A stretch of 44,122 bases of DNA from Klebsiella phage K1-ULIP33 (MK380014.1); one strand, 5' to 3'. Numbered from the stretch's first letter, positions 456 through 43,746 are shown. The notes: generated from the letters alone by a model not told the origin. Numbers and translations are program-made.

Positions 456-471
456 GTCCAACACGTTGGAC
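456..471. repeat. palindromic element GTCCAACACGTTGGAC (copy 1)
   Basis: 7-bp inverted repeats with a 2-bp spacer, family GTCCAAC-NN-GTTGGAC. Early region, upstream of the first TTGACA. Confidence 0.85.
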
Positions 472-515
472 ATGCCTGTATAGTGACAGATATCACATAG
501 TGCATTAAATAGTGC

Positions 516-542
516 TTGACAGGGTATTCTTGTTAATACATA
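516..542 (+). promoter_or_regulatory. candidate host sigma70-type early promoter (TTGACA -35; -10 uncertain)
   Basis: Perfect TTGACA at 516..521. The AT-rich downstream stretch has a TACATA/TAATAC candidate -10 with suboptimal spacing. Confidence 0.3.
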
Positions 543-700
543 CTGCAATCACCGGGAACGAAGTGGCGACACAAAGTAGGTAACCGGAAGTAAGCTGGTG
601 AAGAGTAATCGCTCTAAGTAGCCAGATGATTAAGTGTAAGGACTCCGCTAGATGAAACAGGCTAGGGTGGGTTGAGTAAGGACCTTTCAATCCTTCTTCA

Positions 701-748
701 TACATTACGATGATATGAGCTACACTGTGAATCACTGCTCTTTAACAA
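701..748 (+). promoter_or_regulatory. early leader module 1: TACATTA, about 25 nt, then GCTCTTTAACAA
   Basis: TACATT at 701..706 and the conserved 12-mer GCTCTTTAACAA at 737..748. Same architecture as modules 2 and 3. Upstream of the first small early gene (796). Confidence 0.5.
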
Positions 749-795
749 AATGTAATGTACCTAGTGTATGCCGCTCATAACATGAGGGTTACACA

Positions 796-948
796 ATGAA
801 AGAAGGCGATAAGGTCCACTATGTAGATAGCTGGGGCGACATCCATACAGTACGCATAAGCTACCTGTTCACATCAGTGATGGGTAATGAGTGCGCAGCC
901 TTGAGTGATGGGGCTACCAAGCTGGTTACTGAATTGGTGGAGGTGTAG
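796..948 (+). CDS. hypothetical small early protein (50 aa)
   Basis: ATG at 796 with GAGGG 8 nt upstream. Its stop overlaps the ATG of the next ORF (TAGTTATG). Below the 60-aa threshold of the track. Confidence 0.35.
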   Translation: MKEGDKVHYVDSWGDIHTVRISYLFTSVMGNECAALSDGATKLVTELVEV

Positions 949-950
949 TT

Positions 951-1151
951 ATGGCTGTAAACCTGGATGACTTATTGATGTTAGACTTTGCAGACCTTGA
1001 ACTCCGGGTGTATGCAAATTGCATCAAAGAGAACAAGCGGGCATCACGTATGCCAGCACGCAAGCGTAAGGTTCTCTACGGGAAGCATAAACTACCTTGG
1101 TCATTCATACATGATTGCTATGTTTGCCATAAGCAGGGCGGTTTCCTGTGA
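951..1151 (+). CDS. hypothetical early protein (66 aa)
   Basis: ORF track; + strand early region. Basic C-terminus ...RMPARKRKVLYGKHKL. Confidence 0.45.
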   Translation: MAVNLDDLLMLDFADLELRVYANCIKENKRASRMPARKRKVLYGKHKLPWSFIHDCYVCHKQGGFL

Positions 1152-1303
1152 AGATTAAACGTGTAGTTAAGAATGCAAGAAATGCTAAGTGCTACGGGTG
1201 TAGCTGGCGTAAGTTTAAGAAGCTGGTAAGGTCTTCACCAGATGAGAACATAAGCCGCATACCAGCACGCAAGCTTAAATATTTATGGAATAGTATTAAA
1301 TAA
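1148..1303 (+). CDS. hypothetical small early protein (51 aa, GTG start)
   Basis: GTG overlapping the stop of the previous ORF (cTGTGAag). C-terminus ...SRIPARKLKYLWNSIK resembles the C-terminus of the preceding ORF. Confidence 0.3.
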   Translation: MKIKRVVKNARNAKCYGCSWRKFKKLVRSSPDENISRIPARKLKYLWNSIK

Positions 1304-1306
1304 CTG

Positions 1307-1749: not shown

Positions 1750-1751
1750 AT

Positions 1752-2876: not shown

Positions 2877-3785
2877 ATGACTACCGAAAACATTCTCTTG
2901 TCTGTCCGCGAAGCTGCAACCGCTGAAATCAAAGCACATTTGGAGACAATCGGCGCTTCTTACCTCAAAGTCGGCTCCCTTCTGAATGAATTACGCGGCG
3001 ACTTTGAGAACCAGCGCGAATTTCTCGCCTACGTAGAAGAAGAATTCAGCATTAAGAAAGCACAATGCTACAACCTTATGAACGTAGCACGTTGCTTTGA
3101 CGGTGACGAGCGCTTTAAAGGTGTGGCGATGCGCGTCATGCTGTCCCTGATTCCGTTCGCAGATAAGGCCGGGATTATGGATAAGGCCGCAGAACTTGCC
3201 GCCGAGGGCAAATTAGATACGAAGTCCGTTAACGCGCTTACGGGCAAGCCTGAGAATCCCGCCGCTAAACCTATGCATTCACAAGGCGAACCAGAGAAAA
3301 CCGCTGAGAACGCCGCAGAGAGCGCAGAGCAGGCACCGCAGAGCGTACCAGAAGAATCTAATATAGAATGGGGCGCCGATGAAAACACGGATTCGGCACC
3401 GTGGGACGATGAACCAGCACCGCGCGACGACTCACAGAAAGCGCCAGAGCGTAAAGCGGAGCCGCTGGATAACGCTGCAACCGCAGAGAGCGCGGCGATG
3501 GCTGGCATGTTGGAGCAGATTAAAAGTCTTACCAAACAACTCAAAGCTGCAAATGACCGTATCGCAGAGCTAACCAGCACCCGCGAGAACAAGAAGGCCG
3601 CCGCTCCTATGCTTCCACAATTTAAATCTTCCTGCTTCTATGCTCGCTTAGGTTTAAGCGCGGAGGAAGCAAACAAGAAAACAGCAGTTAACAAGGCCAA
3701 ACGTGAGCTTGTTAAGCTGGGTTATGGCGAGGGCCATGAAGCGTGGGTTCTTATTGCCGAGGCAGTAGCTGAATTAACTAAGTGA
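2877..3785 (+). CDS. hypothetical early protein (302 aa) with acidic/proline-rich disordered centre and C-terminal coiled coil
   Basis: Long + strand ORF with RBS. The last early gene before the RNAP, which is the position of host-takeover genes in T7-like phages. No catalytic motif recognised. Confidence 0.6.
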   Translation: MTTENILLSVREAATAEIKAHLETIGASYLKVGSLLNELRGDFENQREFLAYVEEEFSIKKAQCYNLMNVARCFDGDERFKGVAMRVMLSLIPFADKAGIMDKAAELAAEGKLDTKSVNALTGKPENPAAKPMHSQGEPEKTAENAAESAEQAPQSVPEESNIEWGADENTDSAPWDDEPAPRDDSQKAPERKAEPLDNAATAESAAMAGMLEQIKSLTKQLKAANDRIAELTSTRENKKAAAPMLPQFKSSCFYARLGLSAEEANKKTAVNKAKRELVKLGYGEGHEAWVLIAEAVAELTK

Positions 3786-6481: not shown

Positions 6482-6490
6482 TATTAATAG

Positions 6491-6519
6491 GGCCAGCCTT
6501 CGGGTTGGCCTTTTCTTTT
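6491..6519 (+). terminator. stem-loop plus U-tract terminator after the RNAP gene
   Basis: GGCCAGCC-ttcg-GGTTGGCC (one G.U) followed by TTTTCTTTT, 10 nt after the RNAP stop. Confidence 0.6.
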
Positions 6520-6548: not shown

Positions 6549-6564
6549 GTCCAACGTGTTGGAC
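6549..6564. repeat. palindromic element GTCCAACGTGTTGGAC (copy 2)
   Basis: Lies after the RNAP terminator, 10 nt upstream of the promoter at 6574. Confidence 0.85.
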
Positions 6565-6573: not shown

Positions 6574-6594
6574 ATTTACGAGACACTATAGGAC
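6574..6594 (+). promoter_or_regulatory. variant SP6-type promoter (ATTTACGAGACACTATAGGAC)
   Basis: Matches the consensus except at a few positions. Preceded by a copy of the 16-bp palindrome. Confidence 0.45.
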
Positions 6595-6709
6595 TACCCG
6601 TCGGAGACGGAAAGTAATAGGTAGTTAAAGGTAATAAAGGAAAGATAGGTAATATAGGTAATCCTAGGTTACACTTCCTTTATTCTCCCTCCTTATTACA
6701 TGAAGTCCT

Positions 6710-6725
6710 GTCCAACATGTTGGAC
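6710..6725. repeat. palindromic element GTCCAACATGTTGGAC (copy 3, perfectly symmetric)
   Basis: 5 nt upstream of the promoter at 6731. Confidence 0.85.
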
Positions 6726-6730: not shown

Positions 6731-6751
6731 ATTTAGGTGACACTATTGAAC
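6731..6751 (+). promoter_or_regulatory. SP6-type promoter variant (ATTTAGGTGACACTATTGAAC)
   Basis: Perfect -17 to -1 region, with a T instead of A at +1/+2. Immediately preceded by a copy of the palindrome. Upstream of the gp1.1-like and primase genes. Confidence 0.55.
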
Positions 6752-6908: not shown

Positions 6909-8897
6909 ATGGCTATCATCAATAACATTCCTTGCCCGATGTGCCAGAAGAACGGGCATGATAAATCAGGCAACCATCTTATGATCTTTGAGGATGGGGC
7001 AGGTTACTGTAACCGTAGTCACTTCCACGACAACGGACGCCCTTACTACCACAAGCCAGATGGTGGCATCGAAATCACAGAGCTACCTATCAATGGTTCA
7101 ATCAAGTACACTCCTGCACAATTCCGTGACTTGGAGAAAGAAGGGAAGATAGCTGACCCTAAACTACGTGCCATCGCTCTTGGTGGTATGCGAATGAAAG
7201 ACCGTTGGGAGGTAATGAATGATGGAGAGAAGGCAGAGCAAGAAGCCGAGTGGCAACTTGATGTTGAGTGGTTCCTTGAACTTAAAAGGAAGAACCTCGT
7301 ATCACGACACATTAGAGGCGACATTTGTGCGCTGTATGACGTCCGAGTCGGTCATGATGGTGAAGGGAAGGTTAACAGGCATTACTACCCTCGCTTCGAG
7401 AATGGAAAACTTGTAGGTGCGAAGTGCCGGACGCTGCCTAAAGACTTCAAGTTCGGGCACCTTGGTAAGCTGTTCGGCAATCAGGATATGTTCGGCATGA
7501 ACACCATGTCCAACGTGTTGGACAAGGGTCGTCGCAAAGACGTGCTGTTAATTGTCGGCGGCGAGCTTGATGCTATGGCTGCACAGCAGATGCTGATGGA
7601 CGCAGCGACTGGCGATTGGAAGGGCAAGCCTTATCACGTCTGGTCTGTGAACAAGGGTGAGTCTTGCCTTGAAGAGATCGTCCAGAACCGGGAGCACATC
7701 TCGCAGTTCAAGAAAATCATATGGGCCTTTGACGGCGATGAGGTTGGGCGTAAGCAGAACCAGCAAGCGGCCCGCCTGTTCCCTGGCAAGTCCTATATCC
7801 TTGAGTACCCTGCCGGGTGCAAGGATGCGAACAAGGCGCTGATGGCTGGCAAGTCGAAGGAGTTCGTCGATGCATGGTTCAACGCCAAGTCCAGCGAGGA
7901 AGTCTTCGGCAGCCAGATTAAGTCCGTTGCGTCGATGCGTGACGAACTCAAGAGGGCACGACCAGAGGAAGGGCTGTCATGGCCTTGGCCTAAGCTGAAC
8001 AAGGTCACGCTGGGTATTCGTAAGCACCAGCTTATCATCGTCGGCGCAGGCTCCGGTGTAGGTAAGACCGAGTTCCTCCGCGAAGTGGTGAAGCACCTCA
8101 TCGAAGAGCATGGAGAATCTGTTGGCATTATCTCGACGGAAGACCCGACTAAGAAGGTGGCTCGTGCATTCATCGGGAAGTGGATCGACAAGCGCATTGA
8201 GTTGCCGCCGACCAATGACCCGACCGAAGACGGCTATCGTGAGGTGCTTGACTACACAGATGAAGAAGCGGCGGAAGCTATCGACTACGTAGCAGACACA
8301 GGTAAGTTCTTTGTAGCAGATCTCGAAGGTGACTACTCAATGGAGAAGATTGAGCAGACCTGCCTAGAGTTCGAAGCTATGGGGATTCAGAACATCTTTA
8401 TTGATAACTTAACGGGGATTAAATTAGATGAGAGAGCATATGGTGGCAAGGTTGGAGCGCTTGATGAGTGCGTCAAAAGGATTGGAACTATCAAAGACCG
8501 ACACCCTGTTACGATCTTCCTTGTCAGTCACCTTACTCGCCCTTCGGGACAACGTACCCAGCACGAAGAAGGTGGTGAAGTTATCCTTTCTGACTTCCGA
8601 GGCTCAGGAGCTATCGGATTCTGGGCTTCTTACGCCTTGGGGGTTGAGCGTAACACAAGAGCTGAATCGCTTGATGAAAGAACTACCACGTACATCTCAT
8701 GCGTCAAAGACCGTGACCAAGGGATTTTCACGGGGACTAAGGTCATGCTTAAAGGCGACCTTGCAACCGGTAGATTGAAGGAACCTCAAGCACGAACCAA
8801 GAGCTTTGACACAGGTGTACATAAGCAGCAGGAAGTACCTGATGATTTAGGTGACACTATAGAACAAGGTAACTTCGAGGAAGGGCAGGAATTCTAG
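6909..8897 (+). CDS. DNA primase/helicase (T7 gp4-like)
   Basis: N-terminal Cys4 zinc motif CPMCQ..C, a TOPRIM-like region, and a Walker A motif GAGSGVGKTEF in the helicase half. 662 aa. Confidence 0.95.
   Translation: MAIINNIPCPMCQKNGHDKSGNHLMIFEDGAGYCNRSHFHDNGRPYYHKPDGGIEITELPINGSIKYTPAQFRDLEKEGKIADPKLRAIALGGMRMKDRWEVMNDGEKAEQEAEWQLDVEWFLELKRKNLVSRHIRGDICALYDVRVGHDGEGKVNRHYYPRFENGKLVGAKCRTLPKDFKFGHLGKLFGNQDMFGMNTMSNVLDKGRRKDVLLIVGGELDAMAAQQMLMDAATGDWKGKPYHVWSVNKGESCLEEIVQNREHISQFKKIIWAFDGDEVGRKQNQQAARLFPGKSYILEYPAGCKDANKALMAGKSKEFVDAWFNAKSSEEVFGSQIKSVASMRDELKRARPEEGLSWPWPKLNKVTLGIRKHQLIIVGAGSGVGKTEFLREVVKHLIEEHGESVGIISTEDPTKKVARAFIGKWIDKRIELPPTNDPTEDGYREVLDYTDEEAAEAIDYVADTGKFFVADLEGDYSMEKIEQTCLEFEAMGIQNIFIDNLTGIKLDERAYGGKVGALDECVKRIGTIKDRHPVTIFLVSHLTRPSGQRTQHEEGGEVILSDFRGSGAIGFWASYALGVERNTRAESLDERTTTYISCVKDRDQGIFTGTKVMLKGDLATGRLKEPQARTKSFDTGVHKQQEVPDDLGDTIEQGNFEEGQEF
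7508..7523. repeat. palindromic element GTCCAACGTGTTGGAC (copy 4, inside the primase gene)
   Basis: In-frame, encoding M-S-N-V-L-D-K. Confidence 0.8.
8845..8865 (+). promoter_or_regulatory. SP6 promoter (ATTTAGGTGACACTATAGAAC) within the 3' end of the primase gene
   Basis: Consensus match. Drives the downstream genes from 8968. Confidence 0.8.
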
Positions 8898-8914
8898 TGT
8901 TCTTATCAGGGCTT

Positions 8915-8930
8915 ATCCAACATGTTGGAC
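8915..8930. repeat. palindromic element ATCCAACATGTTGGAC (copy 5, one mismatch)
   Basis: 18 nt after the primase stop. Extended flanking complementarity (GCTTATCC/GGACAGGC). Confidence 0.8.
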
Positions 8931-8967
8931 AGGCTCTTATTAAGCACATTAACTATAGGAGATTGTT

Positions 8968-9633: not shown

Positions 9634-9841
9634 GAAACCTAGCCTCAAGTTCCTTGATGGGAACGAATATATGCAACAACGTGTAACCAATCAGGCATTC
9701 CTGTTCGCACAGCTTACTATGGCAGAAGCCAAGAAGAATAGTCTTACCCGCGAGCAGATTATCAAAGACGCTACATGGGAGCCTCACAAGGTGACCTACA
9801 TGGGGCGCAAGGTTACAGTGGAGCGCAAGAAAGTCAGTTAA
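9626..9841 (+). CDS. hypothetical protein (71 aa)
   Basis: ATG at 9626 with GGAGGA 6 nt upstream. The track ORF 9578..9841 starts earlier on a non-ATG codon. Confidence 0.5.
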   Translation: MSKKPSLKFLDGNEYMQQRVTNQAFLFAQLTMAEAKKNSLTREQIIKDATWEPHKVTYMGRKVTVERKKVS

Positions 9842-9854
9842 TAAGTCATGGGTT

Positions 9855-9870
9855 GTCCAACATGTTGGAC
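9855..9870. repeat. palindromic element GTCCAACATGTTGGAC (copy 6)
   Basis: 14 nt after the stop at 9841. Extended to GGTTGTCCAACATGTTGGACAGCC, which can form an 11-bp stem with one G.U. Confidence 0.85.
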
Positions 9871-9902
9871 AGCCTATCATCATATTAATTGGAGGTGACT
9901 CA

Positions 9903-13557: not shown

Positions 13558-13610
13558 AAAGGGCAGCAATAGGTTGCCCTTGATTGTATAGTGTAACAAA
13601 AGGAGGAATA

Positions 13611-15111: not shown

Positions 15112-15128
15112 GTCCAACACGTTGGGAC
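15112..15128. repeat. palindromic element GTCCAACACGTTGGGAC (copy 7, 1-nt insertion)
   Basis: 1 nt after the stop at 15111 and 17 nt upstream of the promoter at 15145. Confidence 0.7.
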
Positions 15129-15144: not shown

Positions 15145-15165
15145 ATTTAGGGGACACTATAGAAG
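15145..15165 (+). promoter_or_regulatory. SP6 promoter (ATTTAGGGGACACTATAGAAG)
   Basis: One mismatch to the consensus. Preceded by an imperfect palindrome copy. Confidence 0.8.
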
Positions 15166-18917: not shown

Positions 18918-19867
18918 TGGATATCTTCTCTTTCATTGGCCTACCAGAAGACCACCGCACTAAGCCAGTTATGCTGGTTAAGCACCGGGATGAAGTGCCG
19001 GATAGTAAGATTAAATTCCCCGTATATGGACAGGTGAAACGCGATGGTATATTCTCTGCTGTTGTTGTTCGCGCTGATAGTGTCGTTGGCATTTTTGGTC
19101 GCACTGGTAAGAAACTGGCAAATGTTGAAGCACTCGAACAAAGATTTGCTTCCTTTCCGGCTGGCATTTATCTTGGTGAGTTGCAGTCTATGGCCGTTGA
19201 TATCTACCTTGAAGCACTCTCTGGTGTGGTGAACCCTAACCGGACGGAACCTCTTGATTACATCGGTCAGCAAATCAAGGATGACTTGTACATAGACTTC
19301 TTTGACATGTTGACGATCAAGGCATTCACTGATGGGTATACGGATGTTACATTCCTTAAACGCCATGCAGCGCTGGAGCGGCGCATAGGTGAACTGGTGT
19401 CCAACACGTTGGACAACATCCTGCCTGTCACTCCTTGCCACAACGAGGTAGAGGTTGAAGCGTTCGCTAAGATGCACATCGACGCAGGTCGTGAGGGTGC
19501 TGTGTTCAAGCTGGACTGCGACTACGAGGCAGGTCACAAAGGCTACCGCCAGACCAAGATCGTCCGCATGGTAAGCTATGACCTTACCTGCATCGGGTGG
19601 GAAGAAGGTAAAGGTAAGTACAAAGGCAAGGTTGCTAACCTCATCTTTAAATGGAAAGGTGGCAAGACTGTCAAAGCTATGCTCGGCAAGGGTTGGACAC
19701 ATGAAGATGCCGAGCGTATGTATCACGATATTAAACATGGTGGCGAGTTGAATGTCATCGGGAAGATCTTCGCTGTCAAGGCGTTACAGGAATCTAGCAA
19801 GGGAATCCTGAGACTTCCCAAGGCTGGAGAGTTACGCCATGATAAGGAGGAACCAGATGTCTTTTGA
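18917..19867 (+). CDS. ATP-dependent DNA ligase
   Basis: Adenylation motif I KRDG in ..YGQVKRDGIFS.. (cf. T7 ligase KYDGVR). Size matches phage ligases at about 316 aa. Confidence 0.85.
   Translation: MDIFSFIGLPEDHRTKPVMLVKHRDEVPDSKIKFPVYGQVKRDGIFSAVVVRADSVVGIFGRTGKKLANVEALEQRFASFPAGIYLGELQSMAVDIYLEALSGVVNPNRTEPLDYIGQQIKDDLYIDFFDMLTIKAFTDGYTDVTFLKRHAALERRIGELVSNTLDNILPVTPCHNEVEVEAFAKMHIDAGREGAVFKLDCDYEAGHKGYRQTKIVRMVSYDLTCIGWEEGKGKYKGKVANLIFKWKGGKTVKAMLGKGWTHEDAERMYHDIKHGGELNVIGKIFAVKALQESSKGILRLPKAGELRHDKEEPDVF
19399..19414. repeat. palindromic element GTCCAACACGTTGGAC (copy 8, inside the ligase gene)
   Basis: In-frame, encoding V-S-N-T-L-D-N. Confidence 0.8.
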
Positions 19868-28538: not shown

Positions 28539-31484
28539 ATGGCAATTGAGCGTCAAGCTGTGCAAGGCTTGCAGCAGGTGAAGTCTACGGGCGGCCCTCG
28601 TATGGCAGGCACCTCTGCAATCCAAGTGAGCGAGCCTCAAATTCGACGTAGCGGCTCATCGTTCATCGACGATATCTTTAGTGCCGCTGGTGCCTTCGCT
28701 ACGGTTGGCACCGAGATTATGCAGCAAGCCGTTGAAGACGATAAGGTACGTCAGTATGACCGCGCCTTGCAGGGCTTGATGCCTTCCGACGATGCGACTG
28801 TGGGTGGCGCTCGCGCCCACATGCTGGTGCAGTTACAGAATGATGTGCTGGGCCACACCATCGCATTACAGGATGAGGCCAAGCGATTCCAAGGCTCAGA
28901 CGAAGAGTGGGAGCAGAAGGTGGTTGACTCCCGCAACGCCATCCAAGCCAAGGTTTACCAGCAATATCCTGGCTTGCAAGGGGATAAGGACACCATGCGC
29001 CTTGTCTCCAACGCATTCATAGAGCAGCAGCCTAAGATCTTCGCGGCAAGGGCAAGTGCCAAGCTGGAGCGGGAAGCGCAGCAGCGCACCGAGGCAATGC
29101 ACTCTCGCGTATTGATGGTGACGGAAGGTTTGTCTGGCAGTTCACTGGATGCGGCACTTCACCAGCTACAGCAGGAAGCCGTAACCATGCAGCTTACCAA
29201 GCCTGAGTATGAAGAAATGATTGCTCAGATTGCAATGGAACGGGCAGCTATTGGTGATTCAACATTCGTTGAAGCTACTAAATCCTTGAAGGATGCCAAT
29301 GGTATCTCCTTGTATCAGCGTAATGGTAAGCTACAGACTGCCGAGATTCAGGCTAACCGAAATTGGGCCGCTCAGAATCAGGTGGAACTCTTCGAGAAGA
29401 AGGATGCAGCGATTCAGGCGTTCACTAATGGTGAGCTTGACCGAGAAGAGATGCTCAAGATTATGCAGAATCACAATGAAATCTCCGGTGGCACTGCATG
29501 GTCTGACGGTGAGATCAAATCCTTGTTCGACCGTGTAGCTAAGAAGAATGCCGAGGATGCCAAGATGCAGGACTTACTGGCCCGTGGTCAGACTGGCTCG
29601 CCTCTTGGTTTGCAGGATATCAGTAACGAAGACCGCAAGTCTTATGCCGAGGCTTTGGCTGGAACCTACACCAAGCTGGCTGAGGATGAGATTAAGCGTA
29701 CTGGCGCTACCGGGGATCAGGCCGAAGCTATCCGTGGTCGTTATGAGCAGATGCGCTACCTCAAGCTGGGACAAGATCTCATCAAAGACCCGAACATTCA
29801 GGCCCGCTATGACTCCCTGATGCAAATGTCCTCTGCTAACCTCAAGGATATGAACACGGAGCCTGAGGCGCTCAAGACGCTGATGAATGCCCGCGACTCT
29901 ATCCCGGAGGATGCACGTCGTGCCGTCATGGGTGACAAGGAGTATGCCTTTGTCGAGAACTATGACCGCGCATTGCAGATGGGCTACAACGTAGGTCAGG
30001 CCGTGGAGTTCGCTCAGAACGTTGCCAAAGGTGAGAAGCTACAAGGCTCCGTCCTCAAAGAGCTATCATCGGATGTAGAGGGTATTGTTGACGATGTAGC
30101 TGGTGGTAGCTGGCTTACACGTGGCGACAACATGAGTGAGGCAGGTCGCAGCATTGTGTTAGATGATGCTATGACTATTGCCCGCGCCATGAAGGTGGCT
30201 GGTCACAACAACGACACCATCAAACGTCACCTGCAATCCTATCTCACCTCTCAATATACCCAGCTATCCGAAGGCTTCTTCACGCAGGGTGTGTTGGTTA
30301 AAGGTGATGCTCGCGCTTTAGGTGACGCTATAGGAGTGAACCAGAAAGACGTACCTATCGCACTTCGTCAGTACATTAATAATCACAAGCAAGAGTTGCT
30401 TGATCAATCTGGAGGAATGAGTGAAGAAGATATCTACGTGGATGTTGACTCTAAGCGTGGCATGTTTGTTATTCGTGCTGGCTCAGGTCGCACTCCCCTC
30501 ACCCCAGCAATGCCGCTCTCTGAAATTAAAGGACAATCCTTACTTCGAGAGCATTACGACGCTAAAGTAAAAGAGCGTGACGAAGCCAAGAAGAACTTCG
30601 AGGAGCAGCAGATGCGCATGTGGGGTGCTGGTGGCTACCAAGCACAGCCTCTACAGAAAGGTGATGTGACAGCGAAAGCCGTAGGGAAGCGGGGTATCGC
30701 TGACTTCTTAATGTCTCCCGCCTTTGCAGCAGGAGAGAACCTTCCGAAGAACTTCGAGTTCGGCTATGATAGGAAGGATCAGGACTTCTTCAACTACGTA
30801 GCTAAAACAGAGAACGGCATGAACGTAGGCTTCGACCGTGTAGCTGGCGTGTACACCCCATATAAAGATGCGCATGGTCAGTCTGTAGGTTACGGTCACT
30901 TCCTCACTGCCGAAGAGAAAGCTAATGGTTACATTATGATTGGCACTGATAAAGTCCCATTCAAACCGGGTCAGTCGCAACTCACCCCGGAGCGAGCCAT
31001 GCGTCTTCTCAAGCAGGACATGGAGAAGAACGTACCGTCTACCAAAGATTGGGCCATCCCTTTCGATGCGATGCACCCAAGTACCCAGCGTGGTGTCATG
31101 GATTTGACCTATAACTTAGGTAAGTCTGGCATTCAGAAGTCACCCAAAGCATACGCAGCTTTCAAGGCTGGTCGTATCACAGATGGCTTCATTGAGATGT
31201 TAGGCACTGCATCTACGGAAGGCAAGCGCAGTCCGGGATTGCTGGTTCGTCGCGCAGAAGCATATAACATGGCACAAGGTGAGACAGGTGTCCCTCTTAT
31301 CAGCGAGGTGGAGACGCGAGCAGACGGCTCTATGTACGTCAAGTTCGCTGGCAAGATGTCACCTGCATTCGTGAGCCAGAGCATTCACAATCGTATCGAC
31401 AAGAACGGGTGGATGCAAGTGTACCCGCCGGGTGCTGGCAAGTTAGTTGCTGGTGCCAAAGTGGGTAAGGTGAAAGTTAAGTAG
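28539..31484 (+). CDS. internal virion (core/ejection) protein with a C-terminal T4-lysozyme-like muramidase domain
   Basis: 981 aa. The segment ..TENGMNVGFDRVAGVYTPYKDAHGQSVGYGHFLT.. matches the GH24/T4 lysozyme catalytic pattern (E..D..T..G.GH). Confidence 0.8.
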   Translation: MAIERQAVQGLQQVKSTGGPRMAGTSAIQVSEPQIRRSGSSFIDDIFSAAGAFATVGTEIMQQAVEDDKVRQYDRALQGLMPSDDATVGGARAHMLVQLQNDVLGHTIALQDEAKRFQGSDEEWEQKVVDSRNAIQAKVYQQYPGLQGDKDTMRLVSNAFIEQQPKIFAARASAKLEREAQQRTEAMHSRVLMVTEGLSGSSLDAALHQLQQEAVTMQLTKPEYEEMIAQIAMERAAIGDSTFVEATKSLKDANGISLYQRNGKLQTAEIQANRNWAAQNQVELFEKKDAAIQAFTNGELDREEMLKIMQNHNEISGGTAWSDGEIKSLFDRVAKKNAEDAKMQDLLARGQTGSPLGLQDISNEDRKSYAEALAGTYTKLAEDEIKRTGATGDQAEAIRGRYEQMRYLKLGQDLIKDPNIQARYDSLMQMSSANLKDMNTEPEALKTLMNARDSIPEDARRAVMGDKEYAFVENYDRALQMGYNVGQAVEFAQNVAKGEKLQGSVLKELSSDVEGIVDDVAGGSWLTRGDNMSEAGRSIVLDDAMTIARAMKVAGHNNDTIKRHLQSYLTSQYTQLSEGFFTQGVLVKGDARALGDAIGVNQKDVPIALRQYINNHKQELLDQSGGMSEEDIYVDVDSKRGMFVIRAGSGRTPLTPAMPLSEIKGQSLLREHYDAKVKERDEAKKNFEEQQMRMWGAGGYQAQPLQKGDVTAKAVGKRGIADFLMSPAFAAGENLPKNFEFGYDRKDQDFFNYVAKTENGMNVGFDRVAGVYTPYKDAHGQSVGYGHFLTAEEKANGYIMIGTDKVPFKPGQSQLTPERAMRLLKQDMEKNVPSTKDWAIPFDAMHPSTQRGVMDLTYNLGKSGIQKSPKAYAAFKAGRITDGFIEMLGTASTEGKRSPGLLVRRAEAYNMAQGETGVPLISEVETRADGSMYVKFAGKMSPAFVSQSIHNRIDKNGWMQVYPPGAGKLVAGAKVGKVKVK

Positions 31485-31501
31485 TGTCATACTCAAGGGT
31501 T

Positions 31502-31517
31502 GTCCAACGTGTTGGAC
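31502..31517. repeat. palindromic element GTCCAACGTGTTGGAC (copy 9)
   Basis: 18 nt after the stop at 31484. Extended to GGTTGTCCAACGTGTTGGACAGCC. Confidence 0.85.
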
Positions 31518-31552
31518 AGCCTTTTATGAATGGCATTAACTAAGGAGGTAAC

Positions 31553-36567: not shown

Positions 36568-36859
36568 CCGACATGCGGCGAGTGAAGATGATGTAGGTAT
36601 TCTTCACAACGCCATTACTAAGATGTTCAACAAGAAGGCACAGGCAATCCTCGATGCTATCGAGGACGACCCTGATGCGGCCATCGGTCTTGTCTCAGGC
36701 AAGGATGTAGGTGCGATGTGTAAATGGGTATTGGATAACGGCATCACTGCCACACCTGCCGCGCAGCAAGAAGAGAGCAAGCTGTCCAAGCGACTGGCTG
36801 CACTCAAGGCTGCATCGCAAGGCAAGGTCATTAACTTTACTGACGTTAAGGAGGCTTAA
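36554..36859 (+). CDS. terminase small subunit (gp18-like), start uncertain
   Basis: Gene directly upstream of the large terminase. I prefer the GTG at 36554, 4 nt after GGAGGGAG. The track ORF begins at 36509 on a TTG inside the holin gene. Confidence 0.5.
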   Translation: MAVNNRHAASEDDVGILHNAITKMFNKKAQAILDAIEDDPDAAIGLVSGKDVGAMCKWVLDNGITATPAAQQEESKLSKRLAALKAASQGKVINFTDVKEA

Positions 36860-38025
36860 TGGCAAAGGCAAGGGAGTCACAAGCGGAAGCCCTTGCCCGT
36901 TGGGAGATGCTGCGAGAGTTACAGCAGACGTTCTCCTATACGGTGCAGGGCTTACTGTCGTTCGCTCAGGTGGTAATCAATACGTTAATCACTGGCAATC
37001 CAGACCTGAACCGAGTACAAGCCGATATCCTCAAGTTCCTGTTTGCAGGAAACAAGTATCGGATGGTAGAAGCGCAGCGTGGTCAGGCTAAGACCACTAT
37101 CGCTGCGATCTATGCGGTGTTCCGTATCATTCACGAACCGCACAAACGTATCATGATAGTATCACAGACAGCCAAGCGTGCCGAGGAAATCGCTGGTTGG
37201 GTGATTAAGATCTTCCGTGGGTTGGACTTCCTTGAGTTCATGCTCCCCGATATCTACGCGGGTGACAAGGCTTCAATCAAAGGCTTCGAGATTCACTACA
37301 CCTTACGTGGAAGTGACAAGTCTCCGTCTGTCGCTTGCTACTCTATCGAAGCAGGTATGCAGGGTGCGCGTGCAGATATCATTCTGGCTGACGACGTTGA
37401 GTCGTTGCAGAATAGCCGTACCGCAGCAGGCCGTGCATTGCTGGAGGACTTGACCAAAGAGTTCGAATCCATCAACCAATTTGGCGATATCATCTACCTA
37501 GGGACGCCGCAGAGCGTTAACTCCATCTACAACAACCTCCCGGCGCGTGGCTACCAGATTCGTATCTGGCCCGGTCGCTACCCTACGCTGGAGCAAGAGG
37601 CTTGCTATGGTGACTTCTTGGCACCGATGATCCGCCAAGACATGACTGACAATCCGTGTCTTCGCTCAGGCTATGGCATTGACGGCACTCAGGGCGCACC
37701 AACCTGCCCGGAGATGTACGACGATGAGAAGCTGATTGAGAAGGAGATCTCGCAAGGTACGGCTAAATTCCAGCTACAGTTCATGCTGAACACTCGCCTG
37801 ATGGATGCAGACCGCTACCCGTTACGCCTGAACAACCTGATCATGATGAGCTTTGGCACTGATGTAGTCCCTGAGATGCCGACTTGGAGCAATGACTCGA
37901 TGAATCTTATCGGCGATGCACCGCGCTTCGGCAACAAGCCCACGGACTACCTATACCGCCCTGTGGCCCGCCCGTATGAGTGGCGACCGATTCAGCGTCG
38001 AGTCATGTACATTGACCCCGCTGGT
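36859..38025 (+). CDS. terminase large subunit, exon 1 (ATPase domain)
   Basis: Walker A-like motif ..EAQRGQAKTT.. and ..ILADDVESL... The ORF continues into the intron and stops at 38076. The predicted 5' splice site lies after GCT GGT (38025), within the conserved ..IDPAG.. nuclease-domain motif. Confidence 0.8.
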
Positions 38026-38780
38026 AAACACCTCTGCCAGCGTAAAACCCTCTTAATTCGGTGGAACTCTCACTGAGACAATACCGAGCGAAGCCTGTTG
38101 CAATGGCAGGAACGTGTAGAGACTAACTGTAAGGCCAAGCGGTCTGAAACAGAGGGAGGCGCAAGCCTAAGATGTAGTCCGACCTACTAGGTGACTAGTA
38201 GAAGTTAAAGTAGCGAATTAACGTAACAATTGAAGGAAGTTAAATATGACAGAGCATAAAGTTTATCATATTCGTGTTGTTGGTGAAACCGACGTAATGC
38301 AAGGTTATGTTGGTGTAACCTCCGATGTTAAGAAACGTATGAGAGAGCACAAATGTGCAGGCCGTTTATGTGATGGTCGTGAGTACGTCATCTTATTCAC
38401 TGGTAACAAAGAAGAGTGCTATGCACTGGAAGAAAAGCTACGCCCACATGACAACATTGGTTGGAATAAGGGTAGAGGTGGTTATCGCAAAGCAGGTAAC
38501 ATCGAGAAAGGTGAACGCATAAGTATTGCCACTGAAATCAAGAAATGGCAGCACTTGTCTGTCGATACTGAGTTCAAGAAAGGCATGACACCTTACAACA
38601 AAGGTACTGGCAAAGGTTACATATTCACTTCTCCAGAGGGTGAAGAGTTCCTTGTAACTTGCATTACTGACTTCTGTAAAGAGCACAACCTGACTCCTCA
38701 GAATATGCGCAAGGTGGCTCGCGGACTACGCAAACAGCATAAAGGTTGGCTCGCACGTCACGTTCAAACCGGGAGGTAAG
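38026..38780 (+). mobile_element. group I intron-like intervening sequence carrying a GIY-YIG homing endonuclease ORF
   Basis: The exon end GCUGGU can pair with the internal guide GCCAGC (38036..38041) to form P1, with a U.G at the splice site. R-like GUGUAGAGACUAA (about 38114) and S-like AAGAUGUAGUCC (about 38170) supply the P7 GACUA/UAGUC pairing. The intron ends in G (38780) right after the ORF stop. The exon reading frames are compatible. Confidence 0.7.
38246..38779 (+). CDS. GIY-YIG homing endonuclease (intron-encoded)
   Basis: N-terminus KVYHIRVVGETDVMQGYVGVTSDVKKRMREH fits the GIY-YIG module (xIY..YIG..R..E). 177 aa. RBS GAAGGAAGTTAAATATG. Confidence 0.8.
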   Translation: MTEHKVYHIRVVGETDVMQGYVGVTSDVKKRMREHKCAGRLCDGREYVILFTGNKEECYALEEKLRPHDNIGWNKGRGGYRKAGNIEKGERISIATEIKKWQHLSVDTEFKKGMTPYNKGTGKGYIFTSPEGEEFLVTCITDFCKEHNLTPQNMRKVARGLRKQHKGWLARHVQTGR

Positions 38781-39503
38781 AACGGTGACGAAACTGGCGT
38801 GGCTATCGTCTTCTTGCTGGGGACGTTCATCTACGTATATAAGTGCTTCGGTGTGCCGGGTGGATACTCGGATAGTGCTCTCAGTCGCATTGTGCGCGAG
38901 GCAAAGGCCGCAGAGGTGAAAGAGGTCTTCATAGAGAAGAACTTCGGTCACGGTGCGTTTGAGGCGGTAATTAAGCCATACTTCGAACGAGAGTGGCCTG
39001 CCGAGTTGAAAGAGGATTATGCGCACGGACAGAAGGAAGTGCGTATCATCGAGACGCTGGAGCCTCTATTCTCTGCGCACCGCATCATCTTCAACGCGGA
39101 GATGATTAAGCAGGACATAGACAGCATACAGCACTACCCGCTCGAAATACGGATGAGCTACAGCCTGTTCGGTCAAATCTCGAACATTACTCTGGAGAAA
39201 GGTTGCCTACGGCATGACGACCGCTTAGACGCCCTGTACGGCGCTATACGGCAATTGACTTCTCAGATAGACTATGACGAGGTTAACCGGATAAATCGGC
39301 TCAGAGCGCAGGAGATGCGCGATTATCTGGACATGATGCACGACCCTCGGAGACGCCGGGAGTTCTTTACCGGGCAAGATCATGGGTATCGCCCTCGGAC
39401 GAACACCAGTGATGCCAGAATCCAGTCCGTGTGGGGCAAATCGGTGCGCCCTAAAACTCGTTCTCGAAATACACTTTCTTCAAGAATTTCAAGGACTTGG
39501 TAA
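38781..39503 (+). CDS. terminase large subunit, exon 2 (nuclease domain)
   Basis: The frame is open from 38781 (NGDETGVAIVFLLGT...), upstream of the first ATG at 38799. It continues the terminase nuclease motif begun in exon 1 (IDPAG | NGDETG). Combined product is about 629 aa. Confidence 0.75.
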   Translation, partial: NGDETGVAIVFLLGTFIYVYKCFGVPGGYSDSALSRIVREAKAAEVKEVFIEKNFGHGAFEAVIKPYFEREWPAELKEDYAHGQKEVRIIETLEPLFSAHRIIFNAEMIKQDIDSIQHYPLEIRMSYSLFGQISNITLEKGCLRHDDRLDALYGAIRQLTSQIDYDEVNRINRLRAQEMRDYLDMMHDPRRRREFFTGQDHGYRPRTNTSDARIQSVWGKSVRPKTRSRNTLSSRISRTW

Positions 39504-41077: not shown

Positions 41078-41153
41078 TAAGGTCTGCTTTAGCAAGCCGG
41101 ACGCTACACAACTTGGGCTGTACATTTTATCGCTAGAACGCGGTTACAAATAA
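40956..41153 (+). CDS. putative o-spanin (Rz1-like outer-membrane lipoprotein)
   Basis: Lipoprotein signal ...MLVMTLLIGSLIISG|C (lipobox LIISGC). GTG at 40956, 6 nt after GGAGG. Overlaps and extends beyond the Rz-like ORF (overlapped spanin architecture). Confidence 0.5.
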   Translation: MKRIMLVMTLLIGSLIISGCATELPRLPAKPTLTAVYEVDDKVCFSKPDATQLGLYILSLERGYK

Positions 41154-41182
41154 TACATAGCTTTATGTATCAATCACCTACG

Positions 41183-41205
41183 ATTTAGGTGACACTATAG
41201 AAGAG
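41183..41205 (+). promoter_or_regulatory. SP6 promoter (ATTTAGGTGACACTATAGAAGAG) for the tailspike module
   Basis: Exact extended consensus. Followed by a short hairpin and the 41280 and 41700 genes. Confidence 0.9.
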
Positions 41206-41279
41206 ATAGAGTGGCGATCGTTTGGTCGCCCTTTACTCAAGGTGCTCATGGTGGGCGCTTTAAGTAAAGGAGGTGTAAT

Positions 41280-41618
41280 TTGCTCACAAGACTAGCAGCC
41301 TTAGTACGCCTGTTACGTGGAGGGACTTTAGAGGATGCTCTTTACTACAACACACCGGAGATGTTTGGGGCAAAAGGTGACGGTACATACTTGCGAGTTG
41401 GAGGCCATTACTTCTGGCAGGATGAGGGTCTTATCATGACAAAGCTAGGGGCTCCTAGCTCTGCAAGTGAGGGTAGGGTGGTCAGGGTACGTCATGTGTC
41501 TGCGCCAGTCTCAGCAAGTGCATCTGGTAACACTGGAGATTTTGCATTTGATGAAGAGTACTTCTATGTGTGTACGCAGTACAATACGTGGAAGCGGGTG
41601 GCCCTTGCCACTTGGTAA
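41280..41618 (+). CDS. hypothetical protein (112 aa) containing a beta-helix N-terminal motif (..FGAKGDG..)
   Basis: TTG at 41280, 6 nt after GGAGGT. An alternative ATG lies at 41357. Contains YNTPEMFGAKGDGTY, the hallmark opening of pectate-lyase-fold and tailspike beta-helices. Confidence 0.45.
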   Translation: MLTRLAALVRLLRGGTLEDALYYNTPEMFGAKGDGTYLRVGGHYFWQDEGLIMTKLGAPSSASEGRVVRVRHVSAPVSASASGNTGDFAFDEEYFYVCTQYNTWKRVALATW

Positions 41619-41699
41619 CACTAGGAGTGGCGTCAGCCACTCTTACGCAACTTTCTTCATAGGCATTCATGGTGGGTGCACATAAACAAAGGAGGTTAC

Positions 41700-43646
41700 A
41701 TGGCTTTAACTAGAGCAACATCGCCTACTCTTAACTTTGACACTGTAAGTCAAGCTGTCTCTTTTGGCACTAAGTTTAAGGTTGGTGATCGCATCTTTAT
41801 CTATGGCGATGAGGGTGTATCTTTTGACTACAGAACAGGATCTTACCTTGTAGACAATGGAACCGTATTTCAAGCAGGTGAGGGTTACTTGGTAAGGAAT
41901 TTTGAAGGGCCAGCCCGGTCTTCTTGGTTCTCTTCGTGGTCTGGTCTGGTGACATATATGTCACTGCCTGGCAGGTCTCTTATCATTGATAATGAAGTGA
42001 AGGCAACTTCTGTGATGTACTTGAAGTCCTTGTCTTCTATCAAATTCACTACAAGTGGTGTAATCATACCAAATGACACACCATCTCAGGTTATCAACAT
42101 ACTTGGGTCAGAACCTACGGCCTTTTTACCAATCGCAGCTAACATGTCAGCAGAGAGTGCACTGGTAACCTTTGCTGACGGCGCAGGTATATCTCCTGGT
42201 GACAATGTGGTGATTAAGTCTGACAGGCCGTGCGACGGCGGACCTAATAGCCACGGCGTCCGTGCCTCGGTCCTTCGCAGGGTGTTAGCTACAACAAGTA
42301 CGGAGGGAGTAACCACGGCACTTCTGGACCAGTCTGTACACTACAACTTCTTGGTATCAGAGAACGCGGTTATCGGTAAGTACAACCCTGTCGAGGATGT
42401 AGAGCTTGTAGATGTGAAGATAAACAAGGTTGCTGACTCTAATGCTCTATTTACCGTAGGCATCTCCATGCAATACTGCAATAACGTGCGTATCAAAGGT
42501 GGTGTGATTCAAGGTAGTAAGCGTGCCGGGTCTGGAGATATCACTGGTCGCTCTGCCATCAAGTTTGCTAACTGTCGCAACTCCTATGTTGACGGCACAC
42601 ACTTCTATGCCATTGGCTGGTACGGTGTGGAGGTGCTTGGGGCATCTGAGGATATCCAGGTAAGGAACATCAAAGCCTGGGATGTTCGACATGCCATTAG
42701 TCTTAACTGGCAGGCAACCACAGATGGCCCTAAGTGGGGTGAACCTATCACCTTCAAGGCCATTGATTGTATTGCACATAAGACTATCCTGTCGGGATTC
42801 GACACCCATGATATCGGCAAGAGAATCCAGTTCATCCGTTGTATCTCTTACGATGCAGGTGATGATGGCTTTCAAGCTCGTGCTCACAACGTTGAGTACA
42901 TCGGATGTAAGGCATACAGACCTAAGCTAGATGGTTTTGCATCAAACACTAATGTTAGCTTCCCGATATACAGGGAATGCATTGCCTACAACGCCCCGCG
43001 TGCTGGGTTCAACGCATCGTATGGTGGTGGTCACATCTATGACTGCGAGGCACACTTCTGTGCAGAGGGTATTAGGACCAGTGGTGGTACGGTGCAAGGC
43101 GGTCGGTACACCAACAACTCCAACGTTGATATCTTCATCACCAAGGATGTTGCAGGTACTCAGCAGACTCCTCTCAACATCTCCGAGGCAAGCCTACGGT
43201 ACGATGGTAATGGTCGTGCTGTGTACTTCCACGGTAAGATGGGTATCGACCCTGCACTTGTCACCATCTCTGATTGTGACATGACAGGTCACGGTCTTGC
43301 CTGGGCATCACTCTCTGGATACACGGTGCAACCTACACCTCCTCGTATGAGCAGGAACACCCTGGACGATGTGAACGTCAGAGGCATCGCAACCCTGGTT
43401 GCTGGCACTGCCACCGTCAATGCTCGTGTGAGAGGTCAGTTTAGCTCTAACGCAAACACCTTTAAGTGGGTGTCTGAGATTAAGCTGACCAGGCTGACCT
43501 ACCCAAGCAATGCAGGACCTGTGTCTGTGACAGCAGTCACTCAGGATGCAAGCGTACCAACACCTAACCCGGACCTGAACTCTTTCACCATTAAGAGTGC
43601 AAACGCAGCTGATGTGTCCCAGGTTATGTGGGAGATATTCCTATAA
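41700..43646 (+). CDS. tailspike (receptor-binding, beta-helix, probable polysaccharide depolymerase)
   Basis: 648 aa. RBS AAAGGAGGTTACATG. The central region has parallel beta-helix-like repeats (..NNVRIKGGVIQGS.., ..NCRNSYVDGTHFYAIGWYGVEV..). It is the last gene before the right DTR, as in SP6/K1-5-type phages. The track ORF starts 24 nt upstream on a weaker ATG. Confidence 0.8.
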   Translation: MALTRATSPTLNFDTVSQAVSFGTKFKVGDRIFIYGDEGVSFDYRTGSYLVDNGTVFQAGEGYLVRNFEGPARSSWFSSWSGLVTYMSLPGRSLIIDNEVKATSVMYLKSLSSIKFTTSGVIIPNDTPSQVINILGSEPTAFLPIAANMSAESALVTFADGAGISPGDNVVIKSDRPCDGGPNSHGVRASVLRRVLATTSTEGVTTALLDQSVHYNFLVSENAVIGKYNPVEDVELVDVKINKVADSNALFTVGISMQYCNNVRIKGGVIQGSKRAGSGDITGRSAIKFANCRNSYVDGTHFYAIGWYGVEVLGASEDIQVRNIKAWDVRHAISLNWQATTDGPKWGEPITFKAIDCIAHKTILSGFDTHDIGKRIQFIRCISYDAGDDGFQARAHNVEYIGCKAYRPKLDGFASNTNVSFPIYRECIAYNAPRAGFNASYGGGHIYDCEAHFCAEGIRTSGGTVQGGRYTNNSNVDIFITKDVAGTQQTPLNISEASLRYDGNGRAVYFHGKMGIDPALVTISDCDMTGHGLAWASLSGYTVQPTPPRMSRNTLDDVNVRGIATLVAGTATVNARVRGQFSSNANTFKWVSEIKLTRLTYPSNAGPVSVTAVTQDASVPTPNPDLNSFTIKSANAADVSQVMWEIFL

Positions 43647-43730
43647 CAACTATGCCACTCACAGCACACCTATGAGTGCCGCTCTGGATACCCAGGCAGT
43701 CCTTAGGTCTTGCTCCCTGTGTGGCTTGTT

Positions 43731-43746
43731 GTCCAACGTGTTAGAC
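43731..43746. repeat. palindromic element GTCCAACGTGTTAGAC (copy 10, one mismatch)
   Basis: 85 nt after the tailspike stop, in the right non-coding region before the DTR. Confidence 0.75.

Follow-up and report, generated by a model that had tools for sequence, protein, structure and literature searches.

A syntenic palindrome family in the SP6-like Klebsiella phage K1-ULIP33: candidate operators of a phage-encoded dimer, three of them at the apex of probable RNase III hairpins

Background

The closest described counterparts of the sequence family treated here are the KorB/OB operators of IncP plasmids (RK2/RP4) and the ParB-parS systems, in which a short palindrome (13–16 bp) recurs in about ten copies across one replicon. 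In case of KorB/OB, some copies lie just upstream of promoters and others far from promoters or within genes, and the site is read by a dimeric helix-turn-helix (HTH) protein, the gene for which resides on that replicon. The same layout is found in the genome of Klebsiella phage K1-ULIP33 (MK380014.1; the complete stretch of 44,122 nt is referred to as the window), where ten copies of the 16-bp palindrome GTCCAAC-NN-GTTGGAC are present and the corresponding reader protein is putative. The replicon differs from those of KorB/OB in being a strictly lytic phage of the T7 supergroup with a single-subunit RNA polymerase (RNAP), and the phage half-sites lie 2 bp further apart than those of parS.

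A second resemblance concerns the three copies at 8915, 9855 and 31502, which share with the RNase III sites R0.3, R0.5, R1, R1.1, R4.7 and R18.5 of phage T7 a bipartite hairpin with asymmetric internal loop, the consensus ..AGUGAUAUACUC AAGG[upper stem]CCUU UAUGAU.. and an intergenic location 33–38 nt before a start codon; the hairpin at 8895–8951 directly follows promoter 8845, comparable to several T7 sites located behind class II promoters. In contrast to T7, the upper stem comprises 13 bp (vs about 10) and the apical 16–18 nt are a fixed palindrome instead of a variable sequence, and seven of the ten palindromes of the window are located outside such hairpins. Bacterial intrinsic terminators and class I terminators of T7-like RNAPs also place a hairpin after stop codons, and copy 31502 is followed by a short U-run; most copies, however, possess neither a stable stem nor a U-run, and terminators are not characterised by a symmetric core of specific sequence. 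T4-type phages harbour promoter-early stem-loop modules (PeSLs), which flank variable mobile open reading frames (ORFs) and mediate their shuffling (PMC4122927). Short conserved stem-loop and promoter motifs at gene-module boundaries of a lytic phage are common to both cases, whereas the copies of SP6-like phages are fixed in conserved core regions and also occur in essential ORFs.

Phages of the SP6/K1-5 type are the source of a standard laboratory RNA polymerase and are used therapeutically against E. coli, Klebsiella and Salmonella strains with capsules; regulation in these phages is assumed to be T7-like. In the searchable literature on the motif and on palindromes, hairpins and RNase III in SP6, K1-5 and Molineuxvirinae no description of the family was found, and predicted terminators in genome papers of SP6-like phages are the only related mention; the primary SP6 and K1-5 genome papers were outside this coverage, so that an earlier mention is possible. 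Here, a two-layer explanation is put forward, to which we assign a probability of about 0.5: the core of the palindrome would represent a DNA operator, and in three intergenic spacers it would in addition be part of RNase III hairpins.

Results and discussion

Palindrome family in the genome of phage K1-ULIP33

The window represents the complete linear genome of an SP6-like podophage with 163-bp direct terminal repeats, sharing ~95 % nucleotide identity with Klebsiella phages Kpp-61 and KpnP_VR702 (VR702) and ~80 % with SP6. An initial annotation, made from the sequence alone, had placed all ten copies correctly (Table 1), while its count of ten perfect 16-mers was too high: seven copies are perfect (456, 6549, 6710, 7508, 9855, 19399 and 31502), those at 8915 (ATCC...) and 43731 (..GTTAGAC) have one mismatch each and that at 15112 (..GTTGGGA) has two. 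The number of copies expected from dinucleotide shuffles is 0.00 for perfect matches and 0.12 when up to two mismatches are allowed, and the observed number was reached in no shuffle. The conserved unit is the 18-mer T-GTCCAAC-RY-GTTGGAC-A with a purine-pyrimidine central dinucleotide in all copies; similarity between copies stops sharply at its borders, and 19 of the 20 half-sites carry CA at positions 4–5. Rfam covariance models yielded no match at gathering thresholds across the whole window.

The proposed neighbourhoods of the copies also proved right, i.e., (i) proximity to stop codons (8915, 9855, 15112 and 31502 within 18 nt, 6549 behind the RNAP-gene terminator), (ii) a distance of 5–17 nt to phage promoters (6549, 6710 and 15112, measured to the -17 position), and (iii) the S-N-V/T-L-D reading frame of the copies within the primase/helicase (7508) and ligase (19399) genes.

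Syntenic conservation and coordinated change of type

Besides SP6 and K1-5, the survey comprised the genomes of F4M1D, Era103, PP1 and R4596 as well as 22 loci from IMG/VR. The family consensus (T)GTCYMAC-RY-GTKRGAC(A) recurs at syntenic positions in all Molineuxvirinae sampled. The check proposed in the initial annotation, positional conservation among relatives of SP6 and K1-5, was strongly positive and went along with a coordinated, lineage-wise change of the motif. SP6 has a syntenic copy at eight of the ten window positions, six of the eight reading GTCTAAC..GTTGGAC; K1-5 carries a different palindrome, GTCTCAC-RY-GTGAGAC, at the same positions; and most window positions are also occupied in PP1 and Era103. 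Synteny spans genera at 60–85 % protein identity. Positions 4–5 adopt the states CA, TA or TC only, with essentially one type per genome: CA in the window group, PP1, F4M1D and two of the loci (L009 and L017), a CA/TA mix in the SP6 clade, and TC in Vectrevirus (K1-5) and Era103. TC-type copies were also found, again in syntenic locations, in the distant relatives L174, L186 and L229 (RNAP identity ~40 %), those of L174 directly preceding ribosome-binding sites. At one site, K1-5 and L022 differ in exactly four core positions, the flanks being identical over 14 nt on each side. According to scans of IMG/VR, multi-copy occurrence is limited to SP6-like contigs of ~44 kb, in addition to prophage cassettes (see below).

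Such a pattern is difficult to reconcile with a neutral or selfish repeat, be it REP/MITE-like or a T4 PeSL-like recombination module homogenised by gene conversion. The palindrome is indeed short and partly tied to promoters and gene boundaries, and template switching can self-correct palindromes. However, the copies are syntenic across genera and not scattered between related genomes as mobile repeats would be, the 18-mer has a sharp boundary, the change of type is directional over all sites, and copies within ORFs are under selection at the cost of amino acid changes; this explanation is therefore regarded as extremely unlikely.

TC-type Vectreviruses occasionally contain a single CA copy (K1-5/L004 at 9570; L048 at 10225) with flanks that are otherwise identical to those of TC-type relatives. 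Either the specificity of the reader is incomplete or these sites are in transition.

The core as a putative DNA operator

Comparison of ~100 sites from genomes down to 40 % RNAP identity revealed no covariation for the core pairs G1-C16, T2-A15, C3-G14 and A6-T11, although neighbouring hairpin pairs covary freely, and changes of the core are limited to the coordinated CA, TA and TC states. Hybrid sites (GTCTCAC..GTTAGAC), which are unpaired at positions 5/12, occur at left ends and in ORFs. Furthermore, copies at the ends, behind the RNAP gene and in ORFs display a C/A asymmetry, i.e., a mismatch on the + strand (SP6 493; window 43731; F4M1D 1099, 1845 and 7676; PP1 5622).

The copies within ORFs allow nucleotide and amino acid sequence to be compared. 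The respective RNAP segment reads SNVLD in phages with a CA/TA site and SHVLD in Era103 (TC), as opposed to ANVWC (window), SNAMT (F4M1D) and ANVLD (K1-5) in phages without the site. In the primase, all CA/TA phages have SNVLD and all TC-type Vectreviruses SHVLD (encoded by GTCTCAC..GTTAGAC); Era103, in which the site is missing, has KDVMA. The ligase site is absent from K1-5 and F4M1D, and the peptides of these phages differ (SGC-N and PNILC). In this reading frame the right arm GTGAGAC is excluded, since it would give rise to a TGA stop codon. The switch from AAC to CAC (N to H), observed for the Vectrevirus primase as well as for RNAP and ligase of Era103, creates a perfect TC-type left half-site and abolishes pairing at 5/12. 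Since pairing is broken yet a half-site gained, selection acts on half-site identity rather than on stem formation, i.e., at the nucleotide level inside ORFs and at the expense of amino acid changes.

The lack of core covariation, the hybrid sites, the copies in ORFs and the left-end copy ahead of the first early promoter together argue for duplex DNA as the target, with a homodimer recognising the two half-sites. On balance, sequence comparison slightly favours the 18-bp core of all ten copies as a double-stranded DNA operator of a phage-encoded dimer with a KorB/OB- or ParB/parS-like layout; binding of such a protein is what we infer from the pattern of sites.

Alternatively, every copy could function as a sequence-specific mRNA stem-loop (6-bp stem, C-R-Y-G loop) read by RNase III or another RNA-binding protein, thereby tuning processing, stability or translation of early and middle transcripts. 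All genes are encoded on the + strand and every copy is transcribable, the end copies via concatemer junctions; three copies are demonstrably within structured RNA elements, the variants of the SP6 clade form + strand U.G wobbles at six internal sites, and the L174 copies are located next to ribosome-binding sites. This explanation is nevertheless considered rather unlikely, as it is at variance with the N-to-H changes destroying pairing, with unpaired hybrid sites and C/A mismatches, with the invariance of core pairs next to covarying stems, and with the location of the left-end copy upstream of the first early promoter. Moreover, folding of the core-only copies 6549, 6710 and 15112 is not superior to that of shuffled sequence (z -0.4 to -0.6).

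Pairing could also be of relevance in single-stranded DNA (ssDNA) during replication, with the palindromes acting as lagging-strand primosome or origin signal or in hairpin priming at the genome ends. Six copies cluster at 6.5–9.9 kb, a region behind the RNAP gene that is the counterpart of the T7 primary origin, and two copies flank the terminal repeats. The concatemer junction is flanked by a palindrome pair in relatives as well (L006, L020, L021 and L027). In SP6 and F4M1D, the wobble asymmetry flips between internal (+) and left-end (-) copies, as predicted by bidirectional replication from ~6.6 kb. However, the objections to pairing apply here, too, the asymmetry of copy 43731 is wrong for a rightward fork, the copies in RNase III sites are explained by RNA, and the motif does not contain GCA, reportedly the recognition site of SP6 primase; ssDNA hairpins thus appear hardly probable.

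The left-end copy resides within a longer imperfect inverted repeat at 436–491 (GUCUGUCCUGUG...UAUAGUGACAGAU; -23.1 kcal/mol, z -4.55). A similar extension is present in F4M1D relatives and none in SP6 and K1-5.

A tentative reader protein

The likeliest, though still tentative, reader of the palindrome is the early protein of 302 amino acids (aa) encoded just upstream of the RNAP gene (Table 1). It is encoded by every palindrome-bearing genome including L174 and L186, its helix KKAQCYxLMxVAR is near-invariant, the C-terminal helical domain is conserved, and the coiled coil is supported by bZIP-like matches. Across 45 loci, residue 66 of the helix is N with CA-type palindromes, H with the CA/TA mix of the SP6 clade and K with TC-type palindromes, without any exception. 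The combination of Asn with A:T and of Lys with C:G at position 5 fits common amino acid-base contacts. In trees of RNAP, primase and DNA polymerase, the K|TC Vectreviruses are nested among N|CA lineages and the K|TC phages Era103 and L174 are basal; this placement implies at least three joint transitions of residue 66 and palindrome type.

The structural model of the protein may weakly resemble ParB/KorB. A ParB/Srx CTPase domain was not found in Pfam and PDB profile searches, and the HTH-like domain itself is N-terminal; the palindrome system is therefore at most network-like and not a member of the ParB family. The TC half-site TGTCTCAC is one base off the parS half-site, TGTTNCAC. Profile searches with conserved proteins of unknown function did not reveal a DNA-binding domain.

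The palindrome type tracks phage lineage and not host, which favours a phage protein as reader. A host reader, e.g., a nucleoid protein or transcription factor of Enterobacterales that the phage recruits or titrates by means of the sites, would agree with the fact that all known hosts belong to this order, with a 7-2-7 palindrome as typical of dimeric bacterial regulators, and with retention of the site in bacterial chromosomes by prophage cassettes. Yet the type differs among close hosts (TC in K1-5 of E. coli, CA/TA in SP6 of Salmonella) and is the same in distant ones (TC in Era103 of Erwinia and in K1-5), following phage lineage and the residue of the phage protein. The palindrome is not known to resemble any E. 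coli operator consensus convincingly, and a host reader is considered quite improbable.

Three further phage proteins were rejected as readers: (i) RNAP, since its promoter specificity varies widely (GGTGACAC, CTGGACAC, GGCGAGTA, GGCGGACT, ACCACCCAG) and is not tracked by the three palindrome types, (ii) a basic 71-aa protein (9626–9841), the family of which is absent from the palindrome-bearing L174 and the AlphaFold2 model of which is an uninformative helical hairpin, and (iii) a Cys-rich 221-aa protein (8968–9633), which is absent from Era103.

Three extended copies as RNase III processing hairpins

The copies at 8915, 9855 and 31502 have seven flank pairs beyond the core, resulting in an upper stem of 13 bp that is separated by an internal loop from a lower stem of 8–9 bp. 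Extended flanks, as noted in the initial annotation, are a property of these three copies, and the stem, previously given as 11 bp, measures 13–14 bp and is followed by a lower stem beneath. In an alignment of 29 extended elements from different phages and sites, 94.7 % of the cells are paired, as compared to 75 % for shuffled sequence and no more than 44 % after sliding of the partners. Changes on both sides were observed for 14 of 21 pairs including all lower-stem pairs (8/8), the invariant pairs being those of the core. Wobbles in the flanks of extended copies are almost exclusively compatible with the + strand (~30 G.U vs 2 A.C).

The flanks resemble T7 RNase III sites (ACUCAAGG…CCUUUAUGA). 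Folding of T7 around its cleavage positions as reported by Dunn & Studier 1983, which the RefSeq record does not list, reproduced the classical hairpins with cuts on the 3' side of the internal loop. T7 R0.3, R1.1, R4.7 and R18.5 read ..agtgatatACTC AAGG[upper stem]CCTT TATGAT.., and the 31502 element reads gtagtgtcatACTC AAGG GTT[palindrome]AGC CTTT TATGAAT, representing, like its homologues in SP6, K1-5, PP1 and F4M1D, a near-exact match to the T7 consensus, which its flanks share with R0.5 as well. The elements at 9855 (GUC AUGG..CUAU CAUCA) and 8915 (AUC AGGG..CUCU UAUUA) are diverged matches to the T7 frame ..ACUC AAGG...CCUU UAUGA... Since sequence and structure agree, the extended copies are grouped with the RNase III sites of the T7 supergroup as members of one family. 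In all likelihood, judging by these features, they are processing hairpins of this known kind, at which cleavage is predicted.

The location of copies after stop codons and before promoters would also suit terminators or pause sites of phage or host RNA polymerase, insulating transcription units from each other. In line with this, UUUUAU follows 31502 on the 3' side (the absence of a U-tract, previously stated for all copies, applies to most of them), ARNold annotates the 8915-homologous hairpin of phage R4596 as terminator, and in the prophage cassette a 14-bp stem is followed by UGUUUGAUUU upstream of the cassette promoter. However, the seven core-only copies form an AU-rich stem of 6–7 bp without U-run, i.e., neither a bipartite hairpin nor the stable G+C-rich hairpin with U-run of a terminator; two to three copies are located within essential ORFs (RNAP, primase, ligase); a hairpin terminator needs no strict symmetric sequence conservation; and the extended copies match sites that serve processing rather than termination in T7. 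Termination is thus very unlikely, and of the roles originally listed without ranking, RNase III processing applies to the three extended copies only, with an operator for a dimeric protein as the best reading of the core.

Two promoter-proximal elements at 13539–13594 and 18271–18326 (86 % identical) are free of the palindrome. At the 5' end of the respective transcripts (GAACAAAGGGCAG...UGCCCUUGAUUG), an AAGG/CCUU hairpin like that of T7 R3.8 is formed, and both elements probably represent additional hairpins for RNase III or for stabilisation of the 5' end. The palindrome is therefore no general requirement of such sites.

Promoters and prophage cassettes

The window contains ten strong SP6-type phage promoters. 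Four with perfect consensus have no palindrome upstream, whereas the three with an adjoining palindrome deviate from it by 1–2 nt (Table 1).

Outside the phages, the palindrome is found in a lambdoid-prophage cassette present in 2134 of 5426 complete E. coli genomes (39 %) and in Shigella phage SfIV. The cassette is inserted between the genes for lysis and terminase, in antisense orientation relative to the late genes of the prophage, and consists of an extended palindrome, 14 nt, an SP6/K1-5-type promoter, an AAGG..CCTT hairpin, a ribosome-binding site and a hydrophobic 40-aa ORF (MFHSTSHQAVIMAASVCATDLFRFTLSLIHFYLTGSPLSF). Its palindromes show the same four-base switch as those of the phages, with three versions being observed: TC with the K1-5 promoter ATTTACTGGACACTATAG, CA with ATTTACTGGACACTATAG, and, in SfIV, CA with the SP6-type promoter ATTTAGGTGACACTTTAG. 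In a decayed tandem copy of the cassette, palindrome, promoter and ORF were lost together. Judging from homologous and decayed cassettes, palindrome and promoter behave as one unit outside the phage, too. PADLOC gave no match for the cassette ORF and its neighbour; the cassette may represent a gene for defence or exclusion that responds to phage RNAP. Together with the imperfect promoters linked to palindromes, the cassettes lean towards a positive or licensing role of the site, short of proof.

The spacer between the two palindrome-promoter pairs behind the RNAP gene (6591–6712, 120 nt) forms an inverted repeat, at first purine-rich and then pyrimidine-rich (-36.6 kcal/mol). Its position is equivalent to that of the primary origin and R1.1 region of T7, and an analogous repeat is present in K1-5.

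Functional model

According to the two-layer explanation, a homodimeric phage-encoded protein would read the 16–18 bp core half-site by half-site on duplex DNA. The ~10 operators, at positions conserved in SP6-like phages, would constitute a genome-wide network, of which two flank the terminal repeats, three lie 5–17 bp upstream of the first middle-class promoters, three are in intergenic spacers, and two form part of early and middle ORFs, the number of such copies being higher in relatives. The 302-aa protein could bind via a ParB/KorB-like HTH and dimerise via its coiled coil. By analogy to KorB/OB, the network would modulate the activity of phage promoters in the vicinity; it may also be involved in replication or in organising the genome, and the prophage cassettes suggest that the site would aid promoter use instead of blocking it. 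In three spacers, the palindrome would merely top the upper stem of an mRNA hairpin, with host RNase III expected to cut, like in T7, within the 3' strand of the internal loop.

Several observations weigh against an operator read by the 302-aa protein. Firstly, the six internal T variants of the SP6 clade are all located in the left arm, corresponding to U.G wobbles on the mRNA and fitting an RNA stem; a mutational bias from C to T on the non-template strand would explain them equally well. Secondly, all three hairpins with flanks like T7 R0.3/R1.1 bear the palindrome at their apex, which may be no coincidence. Thirdly, the model of the 302-aa protein has a mean predicted local distance difference test (pLDDT) score of 66 and no significant Foldseek match, and sequence searches of Pfam and PDB retrieved no match, DUF3102 appearing only at E = 0.13. 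Fourthly, the association of residue 66 is confounded by phylogeny (~3 events), and an unbiased scan for substitutions shared by K1-5 and Era103 in 20 core proteins showed no enrichment and did not single out the 302-aa protein by count. Fifthly, a homologue of the protein (diverged helix KKSWAFKLMAVSK) is encoded by Pantoea phage Nufs112, an outgroup phage that has no palindrome of the GTCYMAC-RY-GTKRGAC family. Finally, specificity is not strict, given the rare CA sites in Vectreviruses and the combination of CA palindrome and K1-5 promoter in prophage cassettes.

Nufs112 (L029) possesses a palindrome of its own, (T/C)GTACTAG-N4-CTAGTAC(A/G), at 17015–17034, 972 and 9187 and in the terminal repeats. 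The copy at 17015 is syntenic to window 15112, upstream of a homologue of the gene for the 122-aa protein. The TGTACTAG repeats of this phage were rejected as a clean analogue, since they are mostly terminal-repeat elements and only 17015 is syntenic.

Going beyond the two-layer explanation, one may speculate, with a low probability, about a regulatory layer absent from T7. In this scenario, a ParB/KorB-like early protein on ~10 operators would license or tune phage promoters and possibly origins, forming co-evolving pairs of residue and site (N66/CA, H66/TA, K66/TC). Prophages would have copied the operator-promoter unit as an infection sensor in front of a small hydrophobic peptide gene, fired only by RNAP plus regulator of the invader and diversifying in step with the phages.

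If true, an operator network with a co-evolving early protein would add a regulatory layer outside the T7 paradigm, provide a function for a universally conserved "hypothetical" early gene, and explain why the genes for RNAP, primase and ligase are constrained in sequence. With the three hairpins, concrete candidate RNase III sites are available for the subfamily, and the cassettes, if they are a defence triggered by phage RNAP, would bear on host range and failure of phage therapy.

Table 1 Palindrome copies, predicted hairpins, adjoining promoters and further features
Feature	Coordinates	Strand	Remarks
Core-only palindrome GTCCAACACGTTGGAC, left end	456..471		293 bp inward of left terminal repeat; ~45 bp upstream of first sigma-70-like promoter (516-544); syntenic: SP6 493, K1-5 559, PP1 482, Era103 741
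Core-only palindrome	6549..6564		Downstream of RNAP-gene terminator (6489-6512); 9 nt upstream of phage promoter 6574; syntenic: SP6 6093, K1-5 6002 (as GTCTCAC..GTGAGAC), PP1 6892, Era103 7022
Core-only palindrome	6710..6725		5 nt upstream of phage promoter 6731; syntenic: SP6 6264, K1-5 6183
Palindrome in primase/helicase ORF	7508..7523		Encodes S-N-V-L-D
Palindrome with one mismatch, apical stem of RNase III-type hairpin	8915..8930	+	18 nt after primase/helicase stop (8897)
Perfect palindrome, apical stem of RNase III-type hairpin	9855..9870	+	14 nt after stop 9841; upstream of DNA polymerase gene
Core-only palindrome with two mismatches	15112..15127		Abuts TAA at 15111 (72-aa ORF); 17 nt upstream of promoter 15145; counterpart perfect in Kpp-61 and VR702; K1-5 14559 arranged alike
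Palindrome in DNA ligase ORF	19399..19414		Encodes S-N-T-L-D
Perfect palindrome, apical stem of RNase III-type hairpin	31502..31517	+	18 nt after stop 31484; between two large internal-virion-protein genes
Core-only palindrome with one mismatch (GTTAGAC arm), right end	43731..43746		214 bp before right terminal repeat
Bipartite RNA hairpin (lower stem, internal loop, upper stem), predicted	8895..8951	+	-20.6 kcal/mol, z -2.6; 33 nt downstream of +1 of promoter 8845; upstream of ORF starting 8968
Bipartite RNA hairpin (9-bp lower stem, internal loop, 13-bp upper stem), predicted	9835..9891	+	-27.6 kcal/mol, z -4.7
Bipartite RNA hairpin, predicted	31480..31541	+	Flanks ..AGUGUCAUACUC AAGG[..]CUUU UAUGAAUGGCAUUA..; z -4.6
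Candidate reader, 302-aa early protein	2877..3785	+	Just upstream of RNAP gene; N-terminal helical domain with conserved helix KKAQCYNLMNVAR, acidic linker, coiled coil, C-terminal helical domain
Phage promoter ATTTACGAGACACTATAG	6574..6591	+	2 mismatches to consensus; adjoins palindrome 6549
Phage promoter ATTTAGGTGACACTATTG	6731..6748	+	1 mismatch; adjoins palindrome 6710
Phage promoter ATTTAGGGGACACTATAG	15145..15162	+	1 mismatch; adjoins palindrome 15112
Prophage cassette, E. coli	L274:12540-12800		NZ_CP145646.1 3996940-3997200
Prophage cassette, SfIV	L275:503-760		

Other features of the window

Near its 5' end, the DNA polymerase gene contains a perfect 99-bp tandem duplication (9919–10116; 33 codons, in frame), which extends the ORF to 881 aa, relatives having ~848 aa; the duplication may be genuine or may have arisen during assembly of the sequence. 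The gene for the large terminase subunit is split into ORFs 36859–38076 and 38799–39503 by a homing-endonuclease ORF (38246–38779), as also annotated in Kpp-61 and VR702, and further HNH ORFs are located at 12564–13022 and 13611–14078. Two conserved acidic proteins, encoded at 14078–14881 (267 aa) and 15212–15580 (122 aa), terminate in ...DEDAEY and ...EEEF, respectively, tails resembling the acidic aromatic C-terminus of T7 gp2.5. The 267-aa protein is probably the single-stranded DNA-binding protein of the phage, and the 122-aa protein may be a partner in the replisome.

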